DNA from: an uncultured Bdellovibrionales bacterium
GTDB lineage: Bacteria > Patescibacteriota > Minisyncoccia > Moranbacterales > UBA9337
NCBI GenBank assembly: GCA_964605525.1
Contig: CAZSCV010000006.1
Location: 434-64,433 of the forward strand
DNA: 64,000 bases
Direction: 5' to 3'
Position numbers and translations under genes: made by a program. A model generated the notes under the pieces. That model was not told the DNA's origin. It searched no databases and saw nothing but the letters and a program-made list of their open reading frames with translations. Shown here piece after piece: positions 4,130 through 53,114 of the stretch. Numbering within the stretch: the stretch's first letter is position 1; every line of letters begins with the position of its first letter.

Positions 4130-5287
4130 CTAGAAAAAGTTCTTTATCTTTTCAAAAAAACCCAGATTTGAAATATCCCGAAATGTAATGACGACCATAA
4201 GAATAATCAGAAATAAAAATCCTGCCGTATGCGCCAATTGCTCGAAATTTTTACTTACTGGAGACCCTTTTATTTTCTCAATAAGGATAAAAAATACCCT
4301 TCCGCCGTCCAATGCCGGAAAAGGAAGCGCGTTTATGATTCCCAAATTTATACTCAAGATAGCCGCAAATTGCAAAACATATACCAAGCCCAAAGCGGCG
4401 ACTTGCTTGGTAATAATCGCAATCCCAACCGGACCGGAAATATCCAAAGGAACGGATGATTTCACGAAAAGCATTTTCGCCAAAGCAAACAGAGCGCCCA
4501 AAATCATCATCACGAAATCAATAACTGCCATAAATCCTTTTGTGATAGACTGATACCATGGATACTTCACCATTGCAGTCCTGGCAAGAGAAATTCCTAA
4601 TGAACCCTGATCCGCCGGATATTCCATTCGAGGAACTCCTTTCAATTTCAAAATCTCATCTCCCCTTTTTATTTCCATTAAAATTTCCATTCCTTTACTG
4701 GCAGAAATAAAATCCTGGACTTGGACTGTTTTTTCAACCGAAATACATCCAGACCCGCTCGCCGCACAAAGTTTCGAAATTTCATCCCCCACTTTCAAAC
4801 CCATTTCCATTGCCGGAGTATTTTCCAAAACTTGGGAAATTTGCACTTTGGGCGAAACAACACTTGCGTCATCGCTAATGGATTCCGGCGCTCCCATCAC
4901 AAAAATTGCAGAAAATAGAAGCCATGCCAACAAAAAATTCATTATCACTCCAGCAGACAAAACCTTGATTCTTACCCAGGCAGATTTTGCAGAAAAACTA
5001 TCTTTTTCATTTTCTCCCTCCCCGTTTTCTCCTTTTATTTTCACAAATCCTCCCAAAGGAATCCAATTAATGGAATAAACAGTATTTACAGATTCAATCT
5101 TTTTATTTCCAAACACCAATTTAAATCTTCCCGTCTTCTCACTGCGCACGAATCCAAAAATTCTCGGAGGAAACCCAAATCCGAATTCATCTGCTTTGAT
5201 TCCGTTGCGAATCGCCATTACAAAATGTCCCAATTCGTGCACGAAAATCAAAACTCCCAATATTATGATAAAAATTAAAATATTCAT
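4130..5287 (-). CDS. rseP: RIP metalloprotease RseP (site-2 protease, M50 family) with PDZ domain
   Basis: HELGHF zinc motif in the first TM, multi-TM architecture and the LDGG motif. Confidence 0.85.
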   Translation of the reverse strand: MNILIFIIILGVLIFVHELGHFVMAIRNGIKADEFGFGFPPRIFGFVRSEKTGRFKLVFGNKKIESVNTVYSINWIPLGGFVKIKGENGEGENEKDSFSAKSAWVRIKVLSAGVIMNFLLAWLLFSAIFVMGAPESISDDASVVSPKVQISQVLENTPAMEMGLKVGDEISKLCAASGSGCISVEKTVQVQDFISASKGMEILMEIKRGDEILKLKGVPRMEYPADQGSLGISLARTAMVKYPWYQSITKGFMAVIDFVMMILGALFALAKMLFVKSSVPLDISGPVGIAIITKQVAALGLVYVLQFAAILSINLGIINALPFPALDGGRVFFILIEKIKGSPVSKNFEQLAHTAGFLFLIILMVVITFRDISNLGFFEKIKNFF

Positions 5288-5450
5288 TGTAAAAAAATTT
5301 CTAATTATTAATTTCTAATTTCTAAACAAATCCCAATTATCCAATGTTTAAATTTCAAAACATTGAAACATTTTAAAATTAAAAAATTGATTTAAAATTG
5401 GAAATTAGAAATTAGAAATTTATAAAAATTATGCCCAACATAATTTTTAT

Positions 5451-6008
5451 CTACACCGTCATAATGTCCTTCTCTTTCTTTTCCCGCAATTCTTCCAATT
5501 TTTTGTTATATTCATCAATAATTTCCTGCAATCTTTCTTTTCCCCGAAACTTGTCATCCTCGGCCATTTTTCCATTCTTTTCAGCTTCCTGAATTTCCTG
5601 CCAAATTTCCTCTCTAATTCCGCGAACAGAAATCCTCGCATCCTCAGTTTTTTGATTAAGCGTTTTTACAAAATCTTTTCTTCTTTCTTCGGTAAGCGGA
5701 GGAATATTTATTCGAATAATTTTTCCGTCATTATTTGGATTGAAACCCAAATCAGATAATTTAATTGCCGCCTCAATATTCGTCAAACTATCCGTGTCCC
5801 AAGGAGAAATCACGATCAATCTTGGCTCGGGAGAACTGATATTTGCCATTTGTTTGAGAGGAGTCTTACTTCCGTAATAATCAATCAGCAATCCTTCCAC
5901 GATCCCGGGATTGGCGCGCCCGGTTCTTATTTTTTCCGCTTCATTTTTGTAGTGTACTATTGCATTCTCCAGATCCCCTTTCTTCCTCTCTATTATTTCT
6001 TTATACAT
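5451..6008 (-). CDS. frr: Ribosome recycling factor
   Basis: Full-length similarity to RRF (185 aa; ...RTGRANPGIVEGLLIDYYG...). Confidence 0.9.
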   Translation of the reverse strand: MYKEIIERKKGDLENAIVHYKNEAEKIRTGRANPGIVEGLLIDYYGSKTPLKQMANISSPEPRLIVISPWDTDSLTNIEAAIKLSDLGFNPNNDGKIIRINIPPLTEERRKDFVKTLNQKTEDARISVRGIREEIWQEIQEAEKNGKMAEDDKFRGKERLQEIIDEYNKKLEELREKKEKDIMTV

Positions 6009-6030
6009 ATTTTTATAATTTATTTAATTA

Positions 6031-7101
6031 TTAAAAATCTCTCAGACCGGCATATATTTTACTCGGATCATTGATATTATATTTCAACGCGCTTATACTT
6101 TTTTTAGTATCCAGCTGAAAAACCGACCATTGCGTCCCGCCATCATTGGTTTTATATATCGCTTGCGCAGCTGCGTACACAATCTCATTGGAATTATTCG
6201 GATTAACGGCAATAGCATAAATGGGAAATTTCTTTGAACTCCCGATAACATTCACTTCGGCGATACTATCTCCGAAATTGGAAGATTTGAACATTCCTTC
6301 CGACGTTCCGATATATGCGACTCCGGTATTACTTGGATCCGCAACAATAGATTTTACCGAGGAAGATGGAAAATTAACAATATCTTTTTTATCTTTATTT
6401 TTGTTTTTTCCCAAAAAAGCGAAACTAATTCCATTGTCTTTTGTTATCAAAGCTCCATCACCCAAAACAAGAAAATACACCGCATTCTCATTTTTCTCAT
6501 CAATAACTATTTTAGTTATCGGACTCGTTTCCGCATGAAAATCCTTCCAAGTATCCCCTCCGTCATAAGTTTTGATAATCGTCCCCTTACTTGTTCCGGC
6601 ATACACAATTTGAGGATCAACTTTACTAATCGCCAAAGAAATTATCAGTGTTCCGTCTGCCGGTTCGCTGTATATCTCCCGCCAGCTCGCCCCCCGGTCG
6701 TCTGTACGAAAAATTTTCCCACGTTTTCCCAAAACACCAGTTGCATAAATTGTTTCTGGTTGCTGGTGATTGATGGCAACTCCATATACTTTGGTTGCCA
6801 AAAACTCTGTATTTTTTGTCCATTTTTCACCGCCATCATTAGAAGAAAAAATTCCATTATCCGCACTTCCCAAATACACAGCCTCCGAATTAATCGGATC
6901 AACTGCCATCGTCAAAATATCAACACCAGAAATATTCGTTTTTTCATCATAATAATTTTTTGCTTCCCAATTATTTCCACCGTCAATATTTACCAAGAAA
7001 CCTCCCGTTGAAGTTTTTTTCACTCCGGACAAATCAAATGAACATCCGGAAAAAACAAAAACGACGGTTATTAACAATATAATTTTTATATAATTTTTCA
7101 T
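6031..7101 (-). CDS. Lipoprotein with BNR/Asp-box repeats (Ycf48/sialidase-like beta-propeller)
   Basis: Lipobox MKNYIKIILLITVVFVFSGCS. Five S/T-x-D-x-G-x-x-W repeats (DGGNNW, NDGGEKW, DDRGASW, YDGGDTW, NDGGTQW). Confidence 0.6.
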   Translation of the reverse strand: MKNYIKIILLITVVFVFSGCSFDLSGVKKTSTGGFLVNIDGGNNWEAKNYYDEKTNISGVDILTMAVDPINSEAVYLGSADNGIFSSNDGGEKWTKNTEFLATKVYGVAINHQQPETIYATGVLGKRGKIFRTDDRGASWREIYSEPADGTLIISLAISKVDPQIVYAGTSKGTIIKTYDGGDTWKDFHAETSPITKIVIDEKNENAVYFLVLGDGALITKDNGISFAFLGKNKNKDKKDIVNFPSSSVKSIVADPSNTGVAYIGTSEGMFKSSNFGDSIAEVNVIGSSKKFPIYAIAVNPNNSNEIVYAAAQAIYKTNDGGTQWSVFQLDTKKSISALKYNINDPSKIYAGLRDF

Positions 7102-15216: not shown

Positions 15217-17040
15217 TTGCCCAAAACAATATATATTTTACTTATGGAAAATAATAATAAAAACACATCGCCGCTGTCAGACCGCAAAATATTCTCCCGT
15301 TTTTTTCTATTCTGGCTTGGATTGGGATGGATGGCATTTTTTTTAGCGCTATTTGGATTTTTTTATGAATATTTCTTTGAGGCATATCTCATCTTCGGTA
15401 TCTCTTTTCTTTTACGATTGCTCCTCAAAAAACGCTTTCACCTTTCGCGGGAAATGATTGCAATTCTTGCAATATCCCTGCTTGCCTCGATATTTTTTAC
15501 CGTTCCATCTGTTCCCACAATTTTTTCCGGACGCGACCAGGGGTCAATCAGTGAAGCTGCCATCCGTTTGGCGCAAAACCACCAGCTGGAATTTTCCACT
15601 CCCGCCAGCCAAGAATTTTTCAAAATCTACGGACCAGGCAAGGCGCTCAATTTTCCCGGATTCTATTACACCGATTCAGGAAATCTCATCACTCAATTTC
15701 CTCTGGCTTATATCAGCTGGCTGGCGGTTTTCTTTTCCCTATTCGGACTGGCAGGATTGACAATCGCCAATGCGCTTCTTTTTATTCTTTTTTTGACTTC
15801 ATTCTATTTGCTTTGGCGAATATTTGTTCCCTGGAGATGCGCCGCCATCGGGATGCTTCTTCTTTTGACCAGTTTTTCCTTCTCTTGGATTGCAAAATTC
15901 ACCCTCACTGAAAATATGGCGCTGGCGCTTCTTTGGTTTTCAATTCTAAGCTTGATTTCTTTTCTGCAAAAAAATGAAAAAATGGCTTATTGGTCATTTT
16001 TCCTTTCTTCCGCTCTTCTGATTTTCGTTCGCATTGAGGGAATAATCTTTTTCGCTTTTTCTTTTTTAGCCATTCTTTTTTCTCTTCCAACTCGCGAATA
16101 TCTCAAAAAAAATATTTTCAAATTATTTATTTTGTCCGTTATTTTTTTGGCCGCTATTTTTTTCATAAATTTCAGCATCAGTCTTGGATTTTACAAAGAA
16201 ATCGGAAAAGCCCTGTTTAATTCAACAGGGAATGGAATTATCGATATTGATACATCAATAAATCTTTGGGGAAAATATATTTATCCCGCCCTTTATATAC
16301 TCAAAATATATCTACTCTACGGATTGCTGGGATTTTTTGCCACAGGAATTGCGGGAATTATTTATTTCATCAAACAAAAAAAATATTTAATTCTCACGCC
16401 TCTACTAGTAGTCCTTCCTTCTTTTATTTATCTCATTGATTCCAATATTTCCGCCGACCATCCCTGGATGCTCCGCCGTTTTGTTTTTTCCATCCTGCCA
16501 GCCTTTATTTTTTACGCGGTTATTTTTCTCAGCCAACTCCGCGCAAATTCCAAAAAAGGCATTCGCAGTCTTGCGCTAATAATTGCATTCGTTCTCCTCT
16601 GCGGAAATATTCCCGCTTTCGCGCTGCACATTGATTTTCCTGAAAACAAAAATTTACTTGGGGAAACCGAAACAGTCAGCCAAAGCTTTTCTTCTACTGA
16701 TTTGATTTTGATTGACCGCCTAGCAAGTGGCGACGGCTGGGCAATGATTAGCGGACCAATGAACTTTATCTCCGGAAAAAATTCCATCTACTTTTTCAAC
16801 CCGCAAGACTTCGACAAGCTTAATTTGGAAAAATTTGATAGAATATATTTAATAGTCCCGGAAGAAAGCATTGATTTTTGGAAGCAAAGCGTTTTGTACC
16901 CAAGAATGCATTTTTGGAAAAATTATTCCCTGCAAACGCAAAGATTAGAAAATAATGAAGATGCTAAGAATTTGAAATTGAAATTTGCAAGTAAAAAATA
17001 TAAAACTGTTTCCGGCGCAATATTTGAGATTGAGAAATAA
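15217..17040 (+). CDS. Polytopic membrane protein, putative GT-C-type glycosyltransferase
   Basis: 607 aa, with about 12 TM helices and a soluble C-terminal domain. The first loop motif (SGRDQGSISEAAIRLA) resembles the ArnT/PMT loop of the 30536..32119 protein (YPDEAVNGQDALRF). Confidence 0.4.
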   Translation: MPKTIYILLMENNNKNTSPLSDRKIFSRFFLFWLGLGWMAFFLALFGFFYEYFFEAYLIFGISFLLRLLLKKRFHLSREMIAILAISLLASIFFTVPSVPTIFSGRDQGSISEAAIRLAQNHQLEFSTPASQEFFKIYGPGKALNFPGFYYTDSGNLITQFPLAYISWLAVFFSLFGLAGLTIANALLFILFLTSFYLLWRIFVPWRCAAIGMLLLLTSFSFSWIAKFTLTENMALALLWFSILSLISFLQKNEKMAYWSFFLSSALLIFVRIEGIIFFAFSFLAILFSLPTREYLKKNIFKLFILSVIFLAAIFFINFSISLGFYKEIGKALFNSTGNGIIDIDTSINLWGKYIYPALYILKIYLLYGLLGFFATGIAGIIYFIKQKKYLILTPLLVVLPSFIYLIDSNISADHPWMLRRFVFSILPAFIFYAVIFLSQLRANSKKGIRSLALIIAFVLLCGNIPAFALHIDFPENKNLLGETETVSQSFSSTDLILIDRLASGDGWAMISGPMNFISGKNSIYFFNPQDFDKLNLEKFDRIYLIVPEESIDFWKQSVLYPRMHFWKNYSLQTQRLENNEDAKNLKLKFASKKYKTVSGAIFEIEK

Positions 17041-17103: not shown

Positions 17104-18063
17104 ATGCAAGAATTACCGAAAAATTGGCAAAAAGCATATTGGATTTCCAGAGTAATTCTGGCAGTTGCTTTTTTACTTGCCGGAATGTATTTGTCATACC
17201 GCATCCTCCTACCTTCCAATAAATTCCTTTACCTTTATTCAAACCCCGCAAGCATTCAAAATAATCTTTCCGCTACGCCACAAAAAAACAATCTTCCGCT
17301 ACTATACGCCACGACAATTGATGATTTTTCCAGAATTTCCTCCGAAATTTCTCTTAAAAATAAAACTGAGGATTTTGATCTGTCGGGAAAAATTTCCGTA
17401 CGCAAATCATATCAGGCGTTCTTTTATCCTCAAGGGGAGGACATTACCGTTCCACTGGAGCAATCAGGATTTAATACGGAAGATGGAAAATTAATCTCAT
17501 CTCCGGAAGCGGTGTATGTCCTGGCGGGAAATCAAAAATTTCCGCTTGACAATCCGATTACATTTGAATCGCTGGGATACGACTGGAATAAAGTTTTTCC
17601 GCTTGATGAAGAAACGCTGTCTCAATATGAAAAAGGAAAACTGCTCAATATCCGCTCTCCGCATCCCGATGGAACGATTTTTCGCACCATAGATACGAAT
17701 AAATATTTTTATATTTCCAATGGAGAGAAAAGAGAAATAAAAGGATCGCAAGAATTAATCGCATCCTACACAAAAGACAAATCAATTGTTTCCGTCTCTG
17801 AAAAATCACTGTCTGATTATCAAAAATGTTCTCTTGAAAAAACCGGCTTCTTTTTCACCTCCTACAGCTGTCTGATTGACGCCTCTTTCTTAACAGAATA
17901 TCCGGGAAAAAATTATGAATTTTCTGTCGAAACAAAATCATCCCAAGTCCAATATATAAACGACATTCAGATAGAATTCAAAAGGGATATTACTTGGAAA
18001 AACATCCGCTCCTCTTTGTCATTGATCAAAAGTAGAATAATCCTCAAATATTCCAAAAAATAA
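17104..18063 (+). CDS. Hypothetical membrane-anchored protein
   Basis: N-terminal TM helix, then a 280-aa soluble domain with no recognisable motif. Confidence 0.4.
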   Translation: MQELPKNWQKAYWISRVILAVAFLLAGMYLSYRILLPSNKFLYLYSNPASIQNNLSATPQKNNLPLLYATTIDDFSRISSEISLKNKTEDFDLSGKISVRKSYQAFFYPQGEDITVPLEQSGFNTEDGKLISSPEAVYVLAGNQKFPLDNPITFESLGYDWNKVFPLDEETLSQYEKGKLLNIRSPHPDGTIFRTIDTNKYFYISNGEKREIKGSQELIASYTKDKSIVSVSEKSLSDYQKCSLEKTGFFFTSYSCLIDASFLTEYPGKNYEFSVETKSSQVQYINDIQIEFKRDITWKNIRSSLSLIKSRIILKYSKK

Positions 18064-18461
18064 TGAAAATACTTTCTGATAAAAATTTAACCATATTGCT
18101 GTCAAAACTTTCAGGGGATTTTCTGGTTCTTTTTATGTTTGCCTATGGAGCAATTCTGCTGGCGGAAGCAATTCTGCCGGGAATCGTTTCAAATCGCTTG
18201 AGCATGCTCACCCTCACATGGATACTGTCCGGCGCGTTGGTATTATCCGCGTATTTGGCAAAAAAATCGAAAATTGATATGCCTGCCGAAAAAAATATTA
18301 CCGCAAAAAAAAGCGCTCCTTTTTGGATGCTTCTGGTTTTTGCGGCAACAATAATCATCCTTTCTCTTTTTGGATTTTCCGTTTGGGAAATCACACTCAT
18401 AACAGCAATTTCTCTGGCCATCATTTTCTATGCCAAAAAAGAGTTTGCCCGAGATATATAA
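18063..18461 (+). CDS. Small hypothetical membrane protein (4 TM)
   Basis: Start overlaps the stop of the upstream gene (ATGA). Hydrophobic helices. Confidence 0.35.
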   Translation: MKILSDKNLTILLSKLSGDFLVLFMFAYGAILLAEAILPGIVSNRLSMLTLTWILSGALVLSAYLAKKSKIDMPAEKNITAKKSAPFWMLLVFAATIIILSLFGFSVWEITLITAISLAIIFYAKKEFARDI

Positions 18462-41103: not shown

Positions 41104-41517
41104 TACCAAGGCAAATCTATAAGCCGGATTCTGTACTCCGACGCGAGGTCGGAGTGGCAATCATTTATCTAGCTCCGGCGTTACCGTCGGAGTCAAGCGG
41201 CACCCCCCGGCAAAATGCCGAGGTACGGCCTTGCATTCAAGTAAGGATTTAGCCGTTTCACCTCTTATATTACTATAAGAGCTTATCCCCCGTGAGGGGG
41301 ATATTTTATTTCTTTCGAAATAAAACGTCTCTGCTCGCACCTCTTGGGTTTCCCCATGACGGGCGTTACCTCCGACGATTTTTCAATGTCGGAGCTCCGC
41401 ACCCTTTAGAGCGTCGGAGCCGCTACCCTGCTCCCTGGTACAAAACCAGGGGAATGTCCGGACTTTCCTCTCCGCCGATGCAAAGCATCAGCAGAGCAAT
41501 TGCCCAATTTGCCTTGA
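41104..41517 (-). ncRNA. rnpB: RNase P RNA (bacterial type A)
   Basis: The minus strand carries GAGGAAAGUCCGG (P4 5' strand, plus 41458..41470), ACAGAAUCCGGCUUA (P4 3' strand, plus 41120..41134), AGGGUGCGGAGC, and a P1 pairing CAAGGCAAAU/AUUUGCCUUG. The region is about 410 nt and GC-rich. Confidence 0.8.
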
Positions 41518-41655
41518 TATAAAGCCAAATTTTCAATGTTATATCTACTACTACTCCAAACAATATTAATACTTTTTTACCATTTTGTCAATAAAAACGT
41601 AAAAAACCTTGCCAACAATAGTTAGCAAGGCTAAGAAAACCCGCTTAATATTATG

Positions 41656-41943: not shown

Positions 41944-43086
41944 CTATCTCAATAAAGCTTCCAGTTCCTTTTCAGTTTTTGCGCGGATCTTCGCCTGTAT
42001 TTCATTAATTTCTTCATTGGTCAAAGTTCTTTCAGATGAACGATAGACGATACGGAAAGTGTAGCTTTTTTTATTTTTACCGAACTTTTCATCATTTTCA
42101 TATTCATCCAAAAGTTTCACCTCCTCGATCAGATTGTCTGCATAGTCTCGAACGATTTCATAATAATTATTAATATTTATATCTTTATCAATAATAAACG
42201 AGATATCCCTGATAGTTGCGGGAAATTTGCTAACCTCGGTGAATTTACTATTGATATCCTTGAATTGGCTTGTAATCCTTTCGTTATTCGACCAAAAAAT
42301 TCGAATATCCGGTATCTCGAATTTGACCATAGCCAATCTCTCTATTCCAAAGCCAAATGCCCAACCATTATAAACCTCCGGATCAATATTTAAATTTCTT
42401 AATACCTGAGGATGCACCAATCCAGAACCGACAACCTCGATCCAGTCATCATTAAACTTCATTTCAATTTGAACAGATGGATCGGTAAAAGGAAAAGCAT
42501 CAACTAAAAACCTATATTCTATATTTTCTCCGAAAATGCTTTTTGTCATCTCTATCTCTACTTCTTTCAAATCATCCAGCGTTATTATTTTTTTATCTTT
42601 CTTGCAGAGCAAAAGACCATCAATCTGATGGAATGCCGGAAAATGCTTCCTGTCTATCTCATCCTTTCTATAAACAAGACCTGGCGCAAGCGCCATAACC
42701 TCCCCATCTCGCTCGAGTTTTTCCAAAATTTCCTTGTTAGTCAAATAATATGACCACATCACTGTCATCTGGGTGCGCAAATGATTTGTATTATCTAAAA
42801 AGAAAGTGTCGGTTTCTTTACGTGAAGGATGATCTTTGGGAGAATTTAAGATATCAAACTCTCTTTCCACTGTTGTTATTTTGGGAATTTCAACGATATC
42901 AAAATTGGAAAATCTCGGAATATCCAAGATCTGATCAACTAAAATTTTTATGGGCGAGTTATCTTTTTTTGTCAGATCAGGCAAGGCTACAAATCTTTTT
43001 ATACGCTCAGCCTTAATATCGCTTCTTTTATTTACTTCTTCAATCAGAGCCTTTTCATTTGGATCCTCAATAACAATCTTTCGCAT
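41944..43086 (-). CDS. pheS: Phenylalanine--tRNA ligase alpha subunit with C-terminal FDX-ACB (anticodon-binding) domain
   Basis: PheS motifs FPFTDPS and GWAFGFGIERLAMV. A 110-aa C-terminal extension (...KFPATIRDISFIIDKDI...YTFRIVYRSSERTLTNEEIN) resembles the FDX-ACB/B8 domain normally found on PheT or on the mitochondrial monomeric PheRS. Confidence 0.8.
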   Translation of the reverse strand: MRKIVIEDPNEKALIEEVNKRSDIKAERIKRFVALPDLTKKDNSPIKILVDQILDIPRFSNFDIVEIPKITTVEREFDILNSPKDHPSRKETDTFFLDNTNHLRTQMTVMWSYYLTNKEILEKLERDGEVMALAPGLVYRKDEIDRKHFPAFHQIDGLLLCKKDKKIITLDDLKEVEIEMTKSIFGENIEYRFLVDAFPFTDPSVQIEMKFNDDWIEVVGSGLVHPQVLRNLNIDPEVYNGWAFGFGIERLAMVKFEIPDIRIFWSNNERITSQFKDINSKFTEVSKFPATIRDISFIIDKDININNYYEIVRDYADNLIEEVKLLDEYENDEKFGKNKKSYTFRIVYRSSERTLTNEEINEIQAKIRAKTEKELEALLR

Positions 43087-43107
43087 ATTTTTATTTACTT
43101 CACTGAG

Positions 43108-43533
43108 TTATTTATTTAAATTGATATATTTTGCAAATTTCATTCCAACTTCGGCGTTTTTATCCAGAATAAAAATTCCGGAATGATCATCCCCCAAACC
43201 TAACTCGTCCTTGGCGCACAACATCCCGAAAGATTTTTCTCCGCGAATCTGGGCTTCTCTTATCTCTAATCCATTTGGAAGTTTTGCGCCAACCAACGCA
43301 ACCGGAACCTTTTGTCCAACTTCGATATTTTTTGCGCCACACACGATTTGTAAAATTTCTCCGCCGACATCTGTTTTTGTAATTTGCAGCCTATCGGCAT
43401 TCGGATGTTTTTGGATTTCCAAAATTCTTCCCACCACAACATTTTCAAAACCAATCGCCGACTTTCCGGTTTCTTTTGCGACCAGTTTTTCACCGGACAA
43501 TATATTTTTAAGCCAATCAAATAAAAACTTCAT
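43108..43533 (-). CDS. Stand-alone tRNA-binding domain protein (PheT N-terminal B1 / Trbp111-like OB fold)
   Basis: MKFLFDWLKNI... matches the PheT N-terminus. VVGRILEIQKHPNADRLQITKTDVGG...QIVCGAKN is the tRNA-binding OB fold. It is only about 140 aa and lacks the B3-B7 domains. Confidence 0.7.
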   Translation of the reverse strand: MKFLFDWLKNILSGEKLVAKETGKSAIGFENVVVGRILEIQKHPNADRLQITKTDVGGEILQIVCGAKNIEVGQKVPVALVGAKLPNGLEIREAQIRGEKSFGMLCAKDELGLGDDHSGIFILDKNAEVGMKFAKYINLNK

Positions 43534-43602
43534 ATGCATTATTCTATTATCCCGAAATCCGCCCATGGCGGATACCCGAAATTCAAAACTAAAATACTTA
43601 AT

Positions 43603-44808
43603 CTAAAAAACTATTTTTACAAAATCTTTTTTGCCAACTTTGATTATTTTTCCGGAAAAAGAAATATCTAAAACTTTATTCGGGTCTGTTATTTTTTCTC
43701 CATCAATCGAAACTCCGCCTTGTTCGATTTTCCGGCGCGCATCCCCCTTGCTTGTTGCCACATTTGCCAAAACCAAAAAATCAATCAGATTTATATCTCC
43801 TCTTGCTTTCACCTCTCGCACTTCCTCCGGAATTTCTTTTTTGGAAAAAGTGTTCACAAAATATTCTTCCGCCTCTTGGGCTTTTTCTTCCCCATGATAA
43901 ATTTTCACAATCTCATGCGCCAACCGCACCTTCGCATCCCGCGGATTTTCCAATTTCATCAATTCTTTGATTTCATCCAAAACAATTCTGGTGCAACCCA
44001 AAAGCAAGGGATGAATCATTCCATCCGGTTGCGACATAATCGCTCCAAACAAATCATTGGAATCCAAATCAAGAAAAATTCCGGTTCCATTGGATTTTGA
44101 CATCAACATTCCGGTTTTATCATCAGCAATCAATTTAGCAGAAATCACAAATTTATCTTTGTTTTTCAATTTTTGCATCAAGGTTCTTCCGGCCAACGCG
44201 TTGAAAATCTGATCAGTTCCACAAAGCTCCACATCCACATCCATTTCCACGCTGTCATATCCCTGCATCAAAGGATACAAAAATTCATGCAGATGAATCG
44301 GCTTTCCTTCTTTCATCCTGTTTTCAAACATATCCCGTTCAAGCATTTGCTGGACCGTAAAATTACTGGCGATATCAATCACCTGCTCGAAATTTAATTC
44401 AGAAAGCCACTCGGAATTATATTTTACTTTTACCGGATTATCTTTATCATCAAAAGAAAGAATGTTTTTCGTTTGCTCAAGCCAATTCTTGAAATTCTCC
44501 TCAACACCTTCTCGTGTCTGCCGCACCCTAGCCGCGCCTTTATCAGTCGGATCCCCAATCATTCCCGTAAAATCTCCGATAAGAAAAATCACTTCGTGTC
44601 CCAACTTTCGAAAATCTTCCAATATCATCAAATTTTGCGCATGCCCCAAATGAAGCGCTTTAGCAGTTGGATCGGCGCCGATATAAAATCGAAGATTTTC
44701 ACCAGAAAGCAACTTCTCTCGAAATTCTTTTTTAGTCGGCAAAAATTCCACCAAAACCCCGCGTTCCAAAATCTCATCCACCTTTTTTTCAAGTTCTTTT
44801 TTGTCCAT
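43603..44808 (-). CDS. tyrS: Tyrosine--tRNA ligase
   Basis: HIGH-like motif (ALHLGHA), KMSKS-like motif (LMSKS) and a C-terminal S4 domain. Confidence 0.9.
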   Translation of the reverse strand: MDKKELEKKVDEILERGVLVEFLPTKKEFREKLLSGENLRFYIGADPTAKALHLGHAQNLMILEDFRKLGHEVIFLIGDFTGMIGDPTDKGAARVRQTREGVEENFKNWLEQTKNILSFDDKDNPVKVKYNSEWLSELNFEQVIDIASNFTVQQMLERDMFENRMKEGKPIHLHEFLYPLMQGYDSVEMDVDVELCGTDQIFNALAGRTLMQKLKNKDKFVISAKLIADDKTGMLMSKSNGTGIFLDLDSNDLFGAIMSQPDGMIHPLLLGCTRIVLDEIKELMKLENPRDAKVRLAHEIVKIYHGEEKAQEAEEYFVNTFSKKEIPEEVREVKARGDINLIDFLVLANVATSKGDARRKIEQGGVSIDGEKITDPNKVLDISFSGKIIKVGKKDFVKIVF

Positions 44809-52634: not shown

Positions 52635-53114
52635 TTGACACATCCGACGCTTCGTCCTAAACTGAAACAACGTAAAAAATATTCCGCTAATCCTTCAAGA
52701 AAAAAAATAATGTCCCAAAAAAAATTTCAGGAAAAATTCAAAGTGAAAAAATCCGGCTCCGGACTCGGTCTTTTTGCCGAAAAAGATTTTAAAAAAAATG
52801 ACTTCGTAATTGAATATACCGGGGAAATTATTTCTGAAAAAGAAGCCGAGAAACGCCAAGGAAAATATCTTTTTACCATAAATTCAAAGTGGTGCATCGA
52901 CGGAAAAGAAAGAAAAAACATCAGTCGCTATATCAATCATTCTTGCCGACCAAACTGCGAAGCTCGCTTATCGGGAAAAAAAGTTTTTATTTATGCCAAG
53001 AAGAAAATCCTCCCGGGAGATGAGTTGACTTACAATTATGGAAAAGAATACTTTGACGAATTCATCAAGCCTTATAGTTGCAAATGCCAAGCTTGCCAAA
53101 AGATACCATTTTAA
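52635..53114 (+). CDS. SET-domain protein lysine methyltransferase (likely start at 52710, MSQKKF)
   Basis: GLGLFAEKDFKKNDFVIEYTGEII, the NHSCRPNC motif, ELTYNYG, and a post-SET CKCQAC. Confidence 0.75.
   Translation: MTHPTLRPKLKQRKKYSANPSRKKIMSQKKFQEKFKVKKSGSGLGLFAEKDFKKNDFVIEYTGEIISEKEAEKRQGKYLFTINSKWCIDGKERKNISRYINHSCRPNCEARLSGKKVFIYAKKKILPGDELTYNYGKEYFDEFIKPYSCKCQACQKIPF

Follow-up and report, generated by a model that had tools for sequence, protein, structure and literature searches.

A putative single-chain, mitochondria-like phenylalanyl-tRNA synthetase beside a pheT remnant in Moranbacteria-type Parcubacteria

We analysed a stretch of 64,000 nucleotides (contig CAZSCV010000006.1 of assembly GCA_964605525.1, order Moranbacterales; hereafter the window) that carries two adjoining genes related to phenylalanyl-tRNA synthetase (PheRS). 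One encodes the catalytic core of the alpha subunit (PheS) fused to an FDX-ACB anticodon-binding domain, and the other encodes a small protein resembling the N-terminal part of the beta subunit (PheT). According to our analysis, Moranbacteria-type Parcubacteria (class Paceibacteria) have probably, at a rough probability of 70%, replaced the canonical (alpha-beta)2 PheRS by a minimal single-chain enzyme of the mitochondrial kind, with a remnant of pheT left beside it. The fused protein is most likely the only PheRS of this lineage and would, like the mitochondrial enzyme, work without editing. We infer this because the gene is conserved and widespread in sub-megabase genomes, because a pheT relic adjoins it, and because the same design is sufficient in mitochondria.

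Architecture and active site of the fused PheRS

The fused protein of 380 amino acids (aa) contains a tRNA-synt_2d domain (E=2e-58, residues 38-275) and an FDX-ACB domain (PF03147, E=5.4e-26, residues 286-380), the latter matched over positions 1-94 of the 94-position Pfam profile. Just 37 residues precede the core, and no match to PF02912 (Phe_tRNA-synt_N) was found in Pfam, whereas the canonical PheS genes in two other loci (L012 and L142) do match this family. The fused protein also has no Pfam match to PF03483, the B3/B4 editing domain. Its best sequence match in the Protein Data Bank (PDB) is human mitochondrial PheRS (mtPheRS) with 197 bits, against 157 bits for E. coli PheS, and the alignment with the human enzyme extends without a break across core, linker and anticodon-binding domain.

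An AlphaFold model of the fused protein, built from 47 family sequences, reached a predicted local distance difference test score (pLDDT) of 80.6 and a predicted template modelling score of 0.73. In Foldseek, the model matches closed human mtPheRS over the whole chain (5MGH/3CMQ, template modelling scores 0.73/0.69, about 390 columns, root-mean-square deviation (rmsd) about 4 Å), and bacterial alpha subunits align to its core only; its FDX-ACB domain is packed against the core in the closed arrangement. The first-pass annotation of this DNA had proposed a PheS core fused to FDX-ACB, had called the enzyme mitochondrial-like and had suggested modelling against the human protein. All of this is in agreement with the Pfam matches, the best PDB sequence match and the whole-chain superposition.

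The active-site residues are highly conserved among 121 family members. Invariant positions include H86 and R89 of the HPSR motif, R140, H148, F152, H153, Q154 and D156 of motif 2, F198, P199 and T201 of the Phe-pocket motif (position 200 is F or Y), and G241, W242, A243 and R250 of motif 3, which is present as a GWAFG variant. The two class II motifs that had been pointed out at first reading, FPFTDPS (198-204) and GWAFGFGIERLAM (241-253), are both present and invariant or nearly so in the family. A243 and T201 align with residues that we take to set the size of the pocket in E. coli PheS. Because the residues binding ATP and phenylalanine (Phe) are invariant, we conclude that the fused protein is probably a catalytically active class II synthetase whose pocket is of the Phe type. 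The sequence further suggests that it is specific for Phe, and analogy with the mitochondrial enzyme suggests that it is monomeric.

According to previous studies, monomeric mtPheRS, a chimera of the alpha catalytic module and the B8 domain, is fully active (PMC3275996), and its contacts with tRNA are about half as many as those of the tetramer (PMC4394434). The window enzyme is built in the same manner, as a PheS catalytic module that lacks the N-terminal coiled coil and is joined to the B8/FDX-ACB domain normally ending PheT. If it works like human mtPheRS, its class II core would form phenylalanyl-adenylate, the C-terminal FDX-ACB domain would swing open out of its closed position so that the GAA anticodon of tRNA-Phe can be read, and Phe would then be transferred to A76. 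Post-transfer editing is presumed to be absent because the B3/B4 site is gone.

Distribution and conservation of the fused gene

A genome scan with one genome per GTDB species found the fused gene in at least 542 species, and the locus counts given hereafter refer to the best 80 of these. The best 80 copies show no truncation and share 57-99% identity with the window protein, and every informative record label among them is of Patescibacteria (Moran-, Staskawicz-, Nealson-, Taylor- and Wolfebacteria, and Paceibacter). In the protein database, the fused protein has more than 4,600 homologues (E<=1e-10); proteins of both kinds, fused and small, are already named in databases as PheRS alpha and beta chains. 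The best 120 homologues of the fused protein are 72-100% identical to it, nearly all are 379-383 aa long and both domains are present in every one; names given among them are Moran-, Staskawicz- and Taylorbacteria and the "Parcubacteria/Patescibacteria group".

The fused gene is present in one copy per locus. When the same pairs of genomes are compared, the fused PheRS is 72-82% identical, versus 43-55% in TyrRS, the tyrosyl-tRNA synthetase, and since it is more conserved than TyrRS, it behaves as an essential housekeeping gene and not as a spare paralogue. Its chromosomal neighbours include tyrS, the RNase P RNA gene, CTP synthase and ribosomal protein genes. A prophage or recent-transfer origin of the fused gene was considered and rejected in view of these neighbours and the vertical-looking distribution across Paceibacteria.

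Parcubacteria-type fused PheRS, 60-80% identical, was also observed in third-party metagenome-assembled genomes (MAGs) titled Bdellovibrionales, Gammaproteobacteria or Saccharibacteria (loci L019, L020, L021 and L039, and many records of "uncultured Candidatus Saccharibacteria"), some of them with tyrS / B2 / pheRS synteny. Such titles on these records are probably wrong. In six Paceibacteria loci (L041, L049, L062, L065, L081 and L088), thrS lies 3-5 kb from the fused gene; it is convergent to it in five of them and upstream on the same strand in L065, and could be left over from the canonical thrS...pheST neighbourhood. Short open reading frames (ORFs) with weak FDX-ACB similarity were found immediately 3' of the fused gene in two loci (L006, 7144-7266; L050, 2987-3136), as if its 3' end had been partly duplicated.

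The small B2 protein

The small protein matches tRNA_bind (PF01588) in Pfam with E=1.3e-21, and aligns with residues 39-154 of E. coli/Salmonella PheT at 109 bits. In its structural model, the oligonucleotide-binding (OB) fold at residues 27-141 has pLDDT values mostly above 90, and residues 1-26 fall below 50. The top Foldseek match of the OB-fold is domain B2 of E. coli PheT (rmsd 1.4 Å over 111 columns, 50% identity); other fold matches are Trbp111, CsaA, MetRS-C and Arc1p. The protein starts with the PheT signature MKFxxxWL, and only about 12 residues of domain B1 (MKFLFDWLKNIL) are left. A longer PheT-B1-like segment is kept in some homologues (for example MRYSINWLKEL...LTMRAFEVE in P0239) and deleted in the window copy. 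The first-pass annotation had rightly recognized an N-terminal fragment of PheT with an OB-fold, but had labelled the fold as B1, while it corresponds to the EMAP-like domain B2.

About 470 homologues of the small protein were found, the best 120 of which are all 108-210 aa long, and many of them apparently share contigs with fused PheRS, as judged from contigs of equal length and adjacent locus tags. The OB core contains 38 invariant columns among 36 homologues. An intact small gene is present in seven of the 80 species loci and always directly upstream of the fused gene; an eighth locus carries a truncated version, and none was found within 5 kb in the other 72. A series of decay at the same position was revealed by tblastn: the small gene is full length in the window and in L013, only its last 55 residues remain, at 80% identity, in L015, L005 and L006, and a 23-residue trace (E=1e-4) is left in L003/L004, where PheRS is still 89% identical to that of the window.

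Read together, these sequences suggest that the 141-aa gene is what remains of pheT, with a vestigial B1 N-terminus and an intact B2 OB-fold, and so a surviving piece of the old beta subunit that is selectable but dispensable, the latter because most relatives have lost it. Where kept, it is under purifying selection. By analogy with Trbp111 and Arc1p-type domains, the most likely role of the B2 protein is to bind tRNA non-specifically and in trans, as a helper of a single-chain enzyme that is poor in tRNA contacts, and possibly also of the co-transcribed TyrRS. The early description of a PheRS made of the fused chain plus this protein is supported, with the qualification that B2 is not an obligatory half of the enzyme.

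Search for a beta subunit and alternative explanations

We scanned 62 ORFs of the window against Pfam, comprising every long non-overlapping ORF (the longest of 607 aa), the L27 gene and one 81-aa ORF. In these 64 kb, no B3_4, B5, tRNA_synthFbeta (beta-core) or second PheS-type domain was detected, in line with the initial remark that no editing or core domains of the B3-B7 series follow the small gene; FDX-ACB and tRNA_bind, which had been proposed for the same profile search, were both matched. The flanks of the 80 species loci (±5 kb) likewise contain no B3_4, B5, beta-core or second PheS-type domain. With the PheT proteins of L012 and L142 as queries, tblastn gave no match in about 0.9 Mb made up of the window and of Paceibacteria loci, the latter all centred on the fused gene, and a PheT fragment from L012 gave no match as a query against the protein database. 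No canonical pheS or pheT was found in any of the Paceibacteria sequences examined, which are regions around the fused gene.

Several points weigh against the replacement of the canonical enzyme. The fused protein stays below the cut-offs of three NCBIfam models, with 235.7 bits against 258.35 for pheS_mito (TIGR00469), 179 against 237.45 for canonical pheS (TIGR00468) and 239 against 300 for SrmL (NF051887); the cut-off of TIGR00469 is passed by some more distant relatives (P0241, P0253, P0255, P0256, P0260, P0261 and P0264). The closest named bacterial model, SrmL, is labelled as a ligase of unknown function. The invariant D156 of motif 2 is an Asp at the position aligned with the Glu of FHQxE in other PheRS, and the search for a beta subunit covers only this 64-kb piece of the genome and, in relatives, ±5-10 kb on either side of the gene. 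The fused protein might thus be an extra PheS paralogue with another, SrmL-like job, the housekeeping charging being done by a normal pheS-pheT pair elsewhere. Such a paralogue would agree with SrmL being the top-scoring NCBIfam model, whose profile of about 349 positions spans both the PheS core and FDX-ACB, with a view of this genome that is limited to the window, and with the 45%-identical fused gene that lies in a context unrelated to translation in an Oligoflexia MAG (not a reduced genome). We nevertheless consider it quite improbable. The cut-off of SrmL is reached neither by the window protein nor by any of 10 diverse relatives, the Phe-pocket and ATP-binding residues are invariant, and the gene is found across a whole class of sub-megabase genomes, where it is more conserved than TyrRS and where no canonical pheS or pheT was seen in the regions examined. 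The adjoining pheT remnant is also what would be expected if the locus were a former pheST locus.

That the arrangement is an artefact, in which frameshifts, misassembly or errors of gene calling have disrupted an ordinary pheT and left just its two terminal domains as coding, has a practically negligible chance of being true. Its unusual appearance and the origin of the window from a MAG are all that speaks for it. Only 21 nt separate the two genes, whose order is reversed relative to pheS-pheT, leaving no room for B3-B7, FDX-ACB is in frame with the PheS core, and a frameshifted or misassembled pheT is refuted by the recurrence of the 379-383-aa architecture in thousands of independent assemblies. 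A further question is whether the small protein belongs to PheRS at all, as it could instead be a general tRNA-binding protein of the YtpR/Trbp111 type or a partner of TyrRS, as TapR would be. It passes the cut-off of YtpR (NF045760; 132 bits against 100) and matches weakly TapR (NF045867, TyrS-associated PheT N-terminal domain-related), and tRNA_bind domains that stand alone or are appended to aminoacyl-tRNA synthetases are common, several being among the fold matches named above. In addition, tyrS lies directly upstream of the small gene in five of the seven loci, so that a role shared with TyrRS is possible, and B2 domains fused to TyrRS and LysRS have been reported in bacteria of the candidate phyla radiation (CPR) (Mukai et al., PMC5370408). 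However, B2 of PheT itself is the most similar domain, as the YtpR-like 3BU2 reaches only 90 bits, and the match to YtpR covers profile positions 71-185 of 185, leaving positions 1-70, the N-terminal YtpR domain, unmatched. The TapR score of 61.9 bits is below the cut-off of 120, the PheT N-terminal motif stands at the start of the protein, and the small gene abuts the fused gene in all seven loci, two of which have no tyrS in the flank. The score for pheT_bact (TIGR00472), 151.8 bits against a cut-off of 402.65, comes from profile positions 42-157 of 798 only. A protein unconnected with PheRS is, on balance, rather unlikely, and we prefer to regard the small protein as a piece of the former beta subunit.

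Relation to mitochondrial, viral and canonical systems

Mitochondrial PheRS (human FARS2, PDB 3CMQ closed and 3TUP open with tRNA; yeast MSF1; TIGR00469; "PheRS-M" of AARS Online) has the same two-module chain as the window protein, i.e., a PheS module, a linker and a B8-like FDX-ACB domain, with neither coiled coil nor editing domain. The two also have in common the GWAFG variant of motif 3 and the C-terminal core motif PDIR-FW...RF..QF. Unlike the mitochondrial enzyme, the window enzyme is bacterial, chromosomal and apparently a cytoplasmic housekeeping protein; its 380 aa lack the eukaryotic insertion between motif 2 and the FPFT region, and some Parcubacterial lineages have a separately encoded B2 partner. 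The linker residues I278, N279 and S280 are invariant in the family alignment. The segment between QF and KF (KDINS) has five residues here and nine in the human mitochondrial sequence, and 5-7 residues are found in Parcubacterial and most mitochondrial-type representatives, with up to about 25 in some. As phylogenetic evidence, this comparison of linkers is only weakly suggestive.

The two modules give different pictures of relatedness. Taken alone, the FDX-ACB domain of the window protein scores 49.6 bits with the human mtPheRS domain versus 21-39 bits with bacterial PheT B8, and a profile of the Parcubacterial FDX-ACB family gives 39-80 bits for mitochondrial/viral domains, 13 bits for one PheT B8 and no score for another. 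The catalytic core alone is about equidistant, with 156 bits to E. coli PheS versus 140 to the mitochondrial enzyme. In an exhaustive search among 50%-identity representatives, most of the 150 best relatives are also fusions of core and FDX-ACB. A neighbour-joining tree of the catalytic domains, unrooted and without an outgroup, shows three clusters, namely Parcubacterial fused proteins, canonical PheS and mitochondrial/viral fused proteins. The last cluster mixes eukaryotic organellar enzymes, which carry the insertion, with proteins of about 350 aa.

The Parcubacterial clade also takes in a 414-aa PheS/FDX-ACB fusion from the Oligoflexia MAG (GCA_019694465.1; L009, 10001-11245), which is 45% identical to the window protein, lies outside CPR and has neighbours unrelated to translation. 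This gene may be a paralogue or have been acquired by transfer.

Single-chain PheRS is also encoded by viruses. In IMG/VR (loci L093-L136), 46 viral contigs carry a full-length or nearly full-length PheRS of about 350 aa. Many of them are giant-virus MAGs, some are 200-536 kb long and one measures 1.47 Mb, and further copies of about 350 aa were found on two virus-like contigs of 160 kb and 340 kb with mostly hypothetical genes (L010, L011). The viral proteins consist of the same core and FDX-ACB domain without the eukaryotic insertion and are about 37-38% identical to the window protein, but unlike it, their representatives pass the cut-off of TIGR00469 and cluster with the eukaryotic organellar enzymes. 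They bear on the source of the organellar enzyme. It is conceivable, although unlikely, that the Parcubacterial, the viral ~350-aa and the mitochondrial/plastid PheRS all descend from one ancient alpha-B8 fusion. If this were true, the "mitochondrial" monomeric PheRS would not be a eukaryotic invention; its donor would have been bacterial (CPR-like) or viral, and what the window keeps would be a stage in which a piece of the beta subunit is still a separate gene.

Compared with the canonical (alpha-beta)2 PheRS (E. coli 3PCO, T. thermophilus 1PYS), the window enzyme has a homologous core that agrees with it in the residues of the Phe pocket (FPFT, and Ala in GxAFG); its C-terminal domain is homologous to beta B8, and the small protein to beta B2 plus the first strand of B1. 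It differs in lacking B3/B4 (editing), B5, B6/B7 (catalytic-like) and the alpha coiled coil, in carrying B8 on alpha, in its gene order, which had been recognized as reversed from the beginning, and in scores below the cut-offs of TIGR00468 and TIGR00472. The small protein shares its free OB-fold superfamily with YtpR (3BU2), Trbp111/YgjH, CsaA and TapR, and is adjacent to tyrS as the name of TapR implies; unlike these proteins, it is closest to PheT B2, has a relic of B1 and always abuts the fused gene.

PheRS beta subunits without B2 have previously been reported in CPR bacteria (Mukai et al. 2017, PMC5370408). Two loci of this kind were also found here: L142 encodes a 660-aa PheT (4928-6910) without B2/tRNA_bind in a thrS-infC-rpmI-rplT-pheS-pheT operon, and L012 (1252-2991) is a second canonical pheS-pheT locus whose PheT has no B2/tRNA_bind. 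These B2-less enzymes likewise show that B2 is separable and dispensable in reduced bacteria. They keep the canonical alpha subunit, and their beta subunit still has its editing, core and B8 domains, whereas only B2 and B8 are left of beta in the window, which represents the reverse partial loss.

Significance

According to reviews, every known prokaryotic species has kept PheRS as a heterotetramer, and the monomeric chimera of alpha and B8 is peculiar to organelles (PMC3275996, PMC4394434). We found no description of a bacterial single-chain PheRS in the literature, which is not proof that none exists, and "phenylalanyl" is not mentioned in the supplementary tables of Parcubacteria genome papers. 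What is new here is the mitochondrial design in a bacterial class, forming a separate clade and accompanied by a split-off relic of B2; the sequences themselves were already known. If our reading is correct, a large bacterial class runs on a minimal PheRS design, and the bacterial and viral relatives would allow the origin of the mitochondrial PheRS fusion (whether it arose once, and where) to be tested.

These organisms would also be without PheRS editing against tyrosine and meta-tyrosine, which raises the question of accuracy at Phe codons. In E. coli, PheRS editing matters mainly against meta-tyrosine derived from oxidation. Genes for pyruvate:ferredoxin oxidoreductase and rubrerythrin are also present in the window, in keeping with an anaerobic way of life. 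TIGR00468 and TIGR00472 are, as we assume, among the standard bacterial marker genes; both proteins score below their cut-offs, and completeness estimates and marker-gene trees would therefore systematically miss them in this class. Finally, a compact single-chain PheRS with an optional trans-acting tRNA-binding module would be an attractive scaffold for engineering and for studies of domain shedding.

Organization of the locus

The three genes of the apparent cluster are arranged on the minus strand in the order tyrS, small gene and fused PheRS gene (Table 1), and the ORFs of the PheRS pair lie exactly where the first-pass annotation had placed them. A spacer of 69 nt separates tyrS from the small-gene ATG at 43533. 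Formally, the small ORF extends over 43108-43566 and encodes 152 aa if the first ATG, at 43566, is used. The true start is likely the ATG at 43533, which gives a protein of 141 aa with the onset MKFLFDWL, as judged by comparison with the homologues P0122 and P0123. The ATG at 43566 forms the loop of the small hairpin in the tyrS/small-gene spacer, which could be an attenuator or a processing site. An Rfam scan of the cluster found no T-box or other leader, and this hairpin has no family match there; a consensus scan for terminators found none in the two spacers of the cluster. The first terminator-like site 3' of the fused-gene stop is located past an 81-aa ORF and probably ends the transcription unit.

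Table 1. Features of the tyrS / B2 / pheRS cluster (positions in the window)
Feature	Position	Strand	Description or basis
Fused single-chain PheRS gene (putative)	41944..43086	-	380 aa + stop; ORF and Pfam tRNA-synt_2d, FDX-ACB
N-terminal 37 residues of fused PheRS	42976..43086	-	Helices 11-19 and 24-34 in the model; without PheS coiled coil
Class II catalytic module, residues 38-275 (motif 2, FPFT Phe-pocket motif, motif 3)	42262..42975	-	Pfam, 2e-58
Linker between core and anticodon-binding domain, residues 276-285 (KDINSKFTEV)	42232..42261	-	
FDX-ACB (B8-like) anticodon-binding domain, residues 286-380	41947..42231	-	PF03147
Stand-alone PheT N-terminal fragment	43108..43533	-	141 aa + stop; Pfam tRNA_bind
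Relic of PheT domain B1, residues 1-26 (MKFLFDWLKNIL and shortened linker)	43456..43533	-	Predicted disordered
B2 (EMAP/Trbp111-like) OB-fold, residues 27-141	43111..43455	-	pLDDT, Foldseek
tyrS (TyrRS, 401 aa), first gene of the apparent cluster	43603..44808	-	Pfam tRNA-synt_1b, SYY_C-terminal, S4
Hairpin TCCGCC-ATG-GGCGGA (perfect, 6-bp) with flanking direct repeat ATTTCGGG	43558..43572	-	tyrS/small-gene spacer; sequence inspection
Terminator-like hairpin, 12-bp stem followed by T run	41605..41632	-	Consensus scan only

Just downstream of the PheRS cluster, the bacterial RNase P RNA is encoded at 41104-41515 on the minus strand (Rfam RF00010, 113.7 bits, full model), and tyrS, the gene for the tRNA-binding protein, pheRS and rnpB are thus all located on one strand within about 3.7 kb. 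The window is otherwise coded almost wholly on the minus strand, and its GC skew is strongly negative over the whole length. Plus-strand ORFs of 607, 319 and 132 aa form a block (15217-17040 and 17104-18461) without Pfam matches. A SET-domain protein of 159 aa (PF00856, E=3e-28) is encoded at 52635-53114 on the plus strand, opposite to nearly all of its neighbours.

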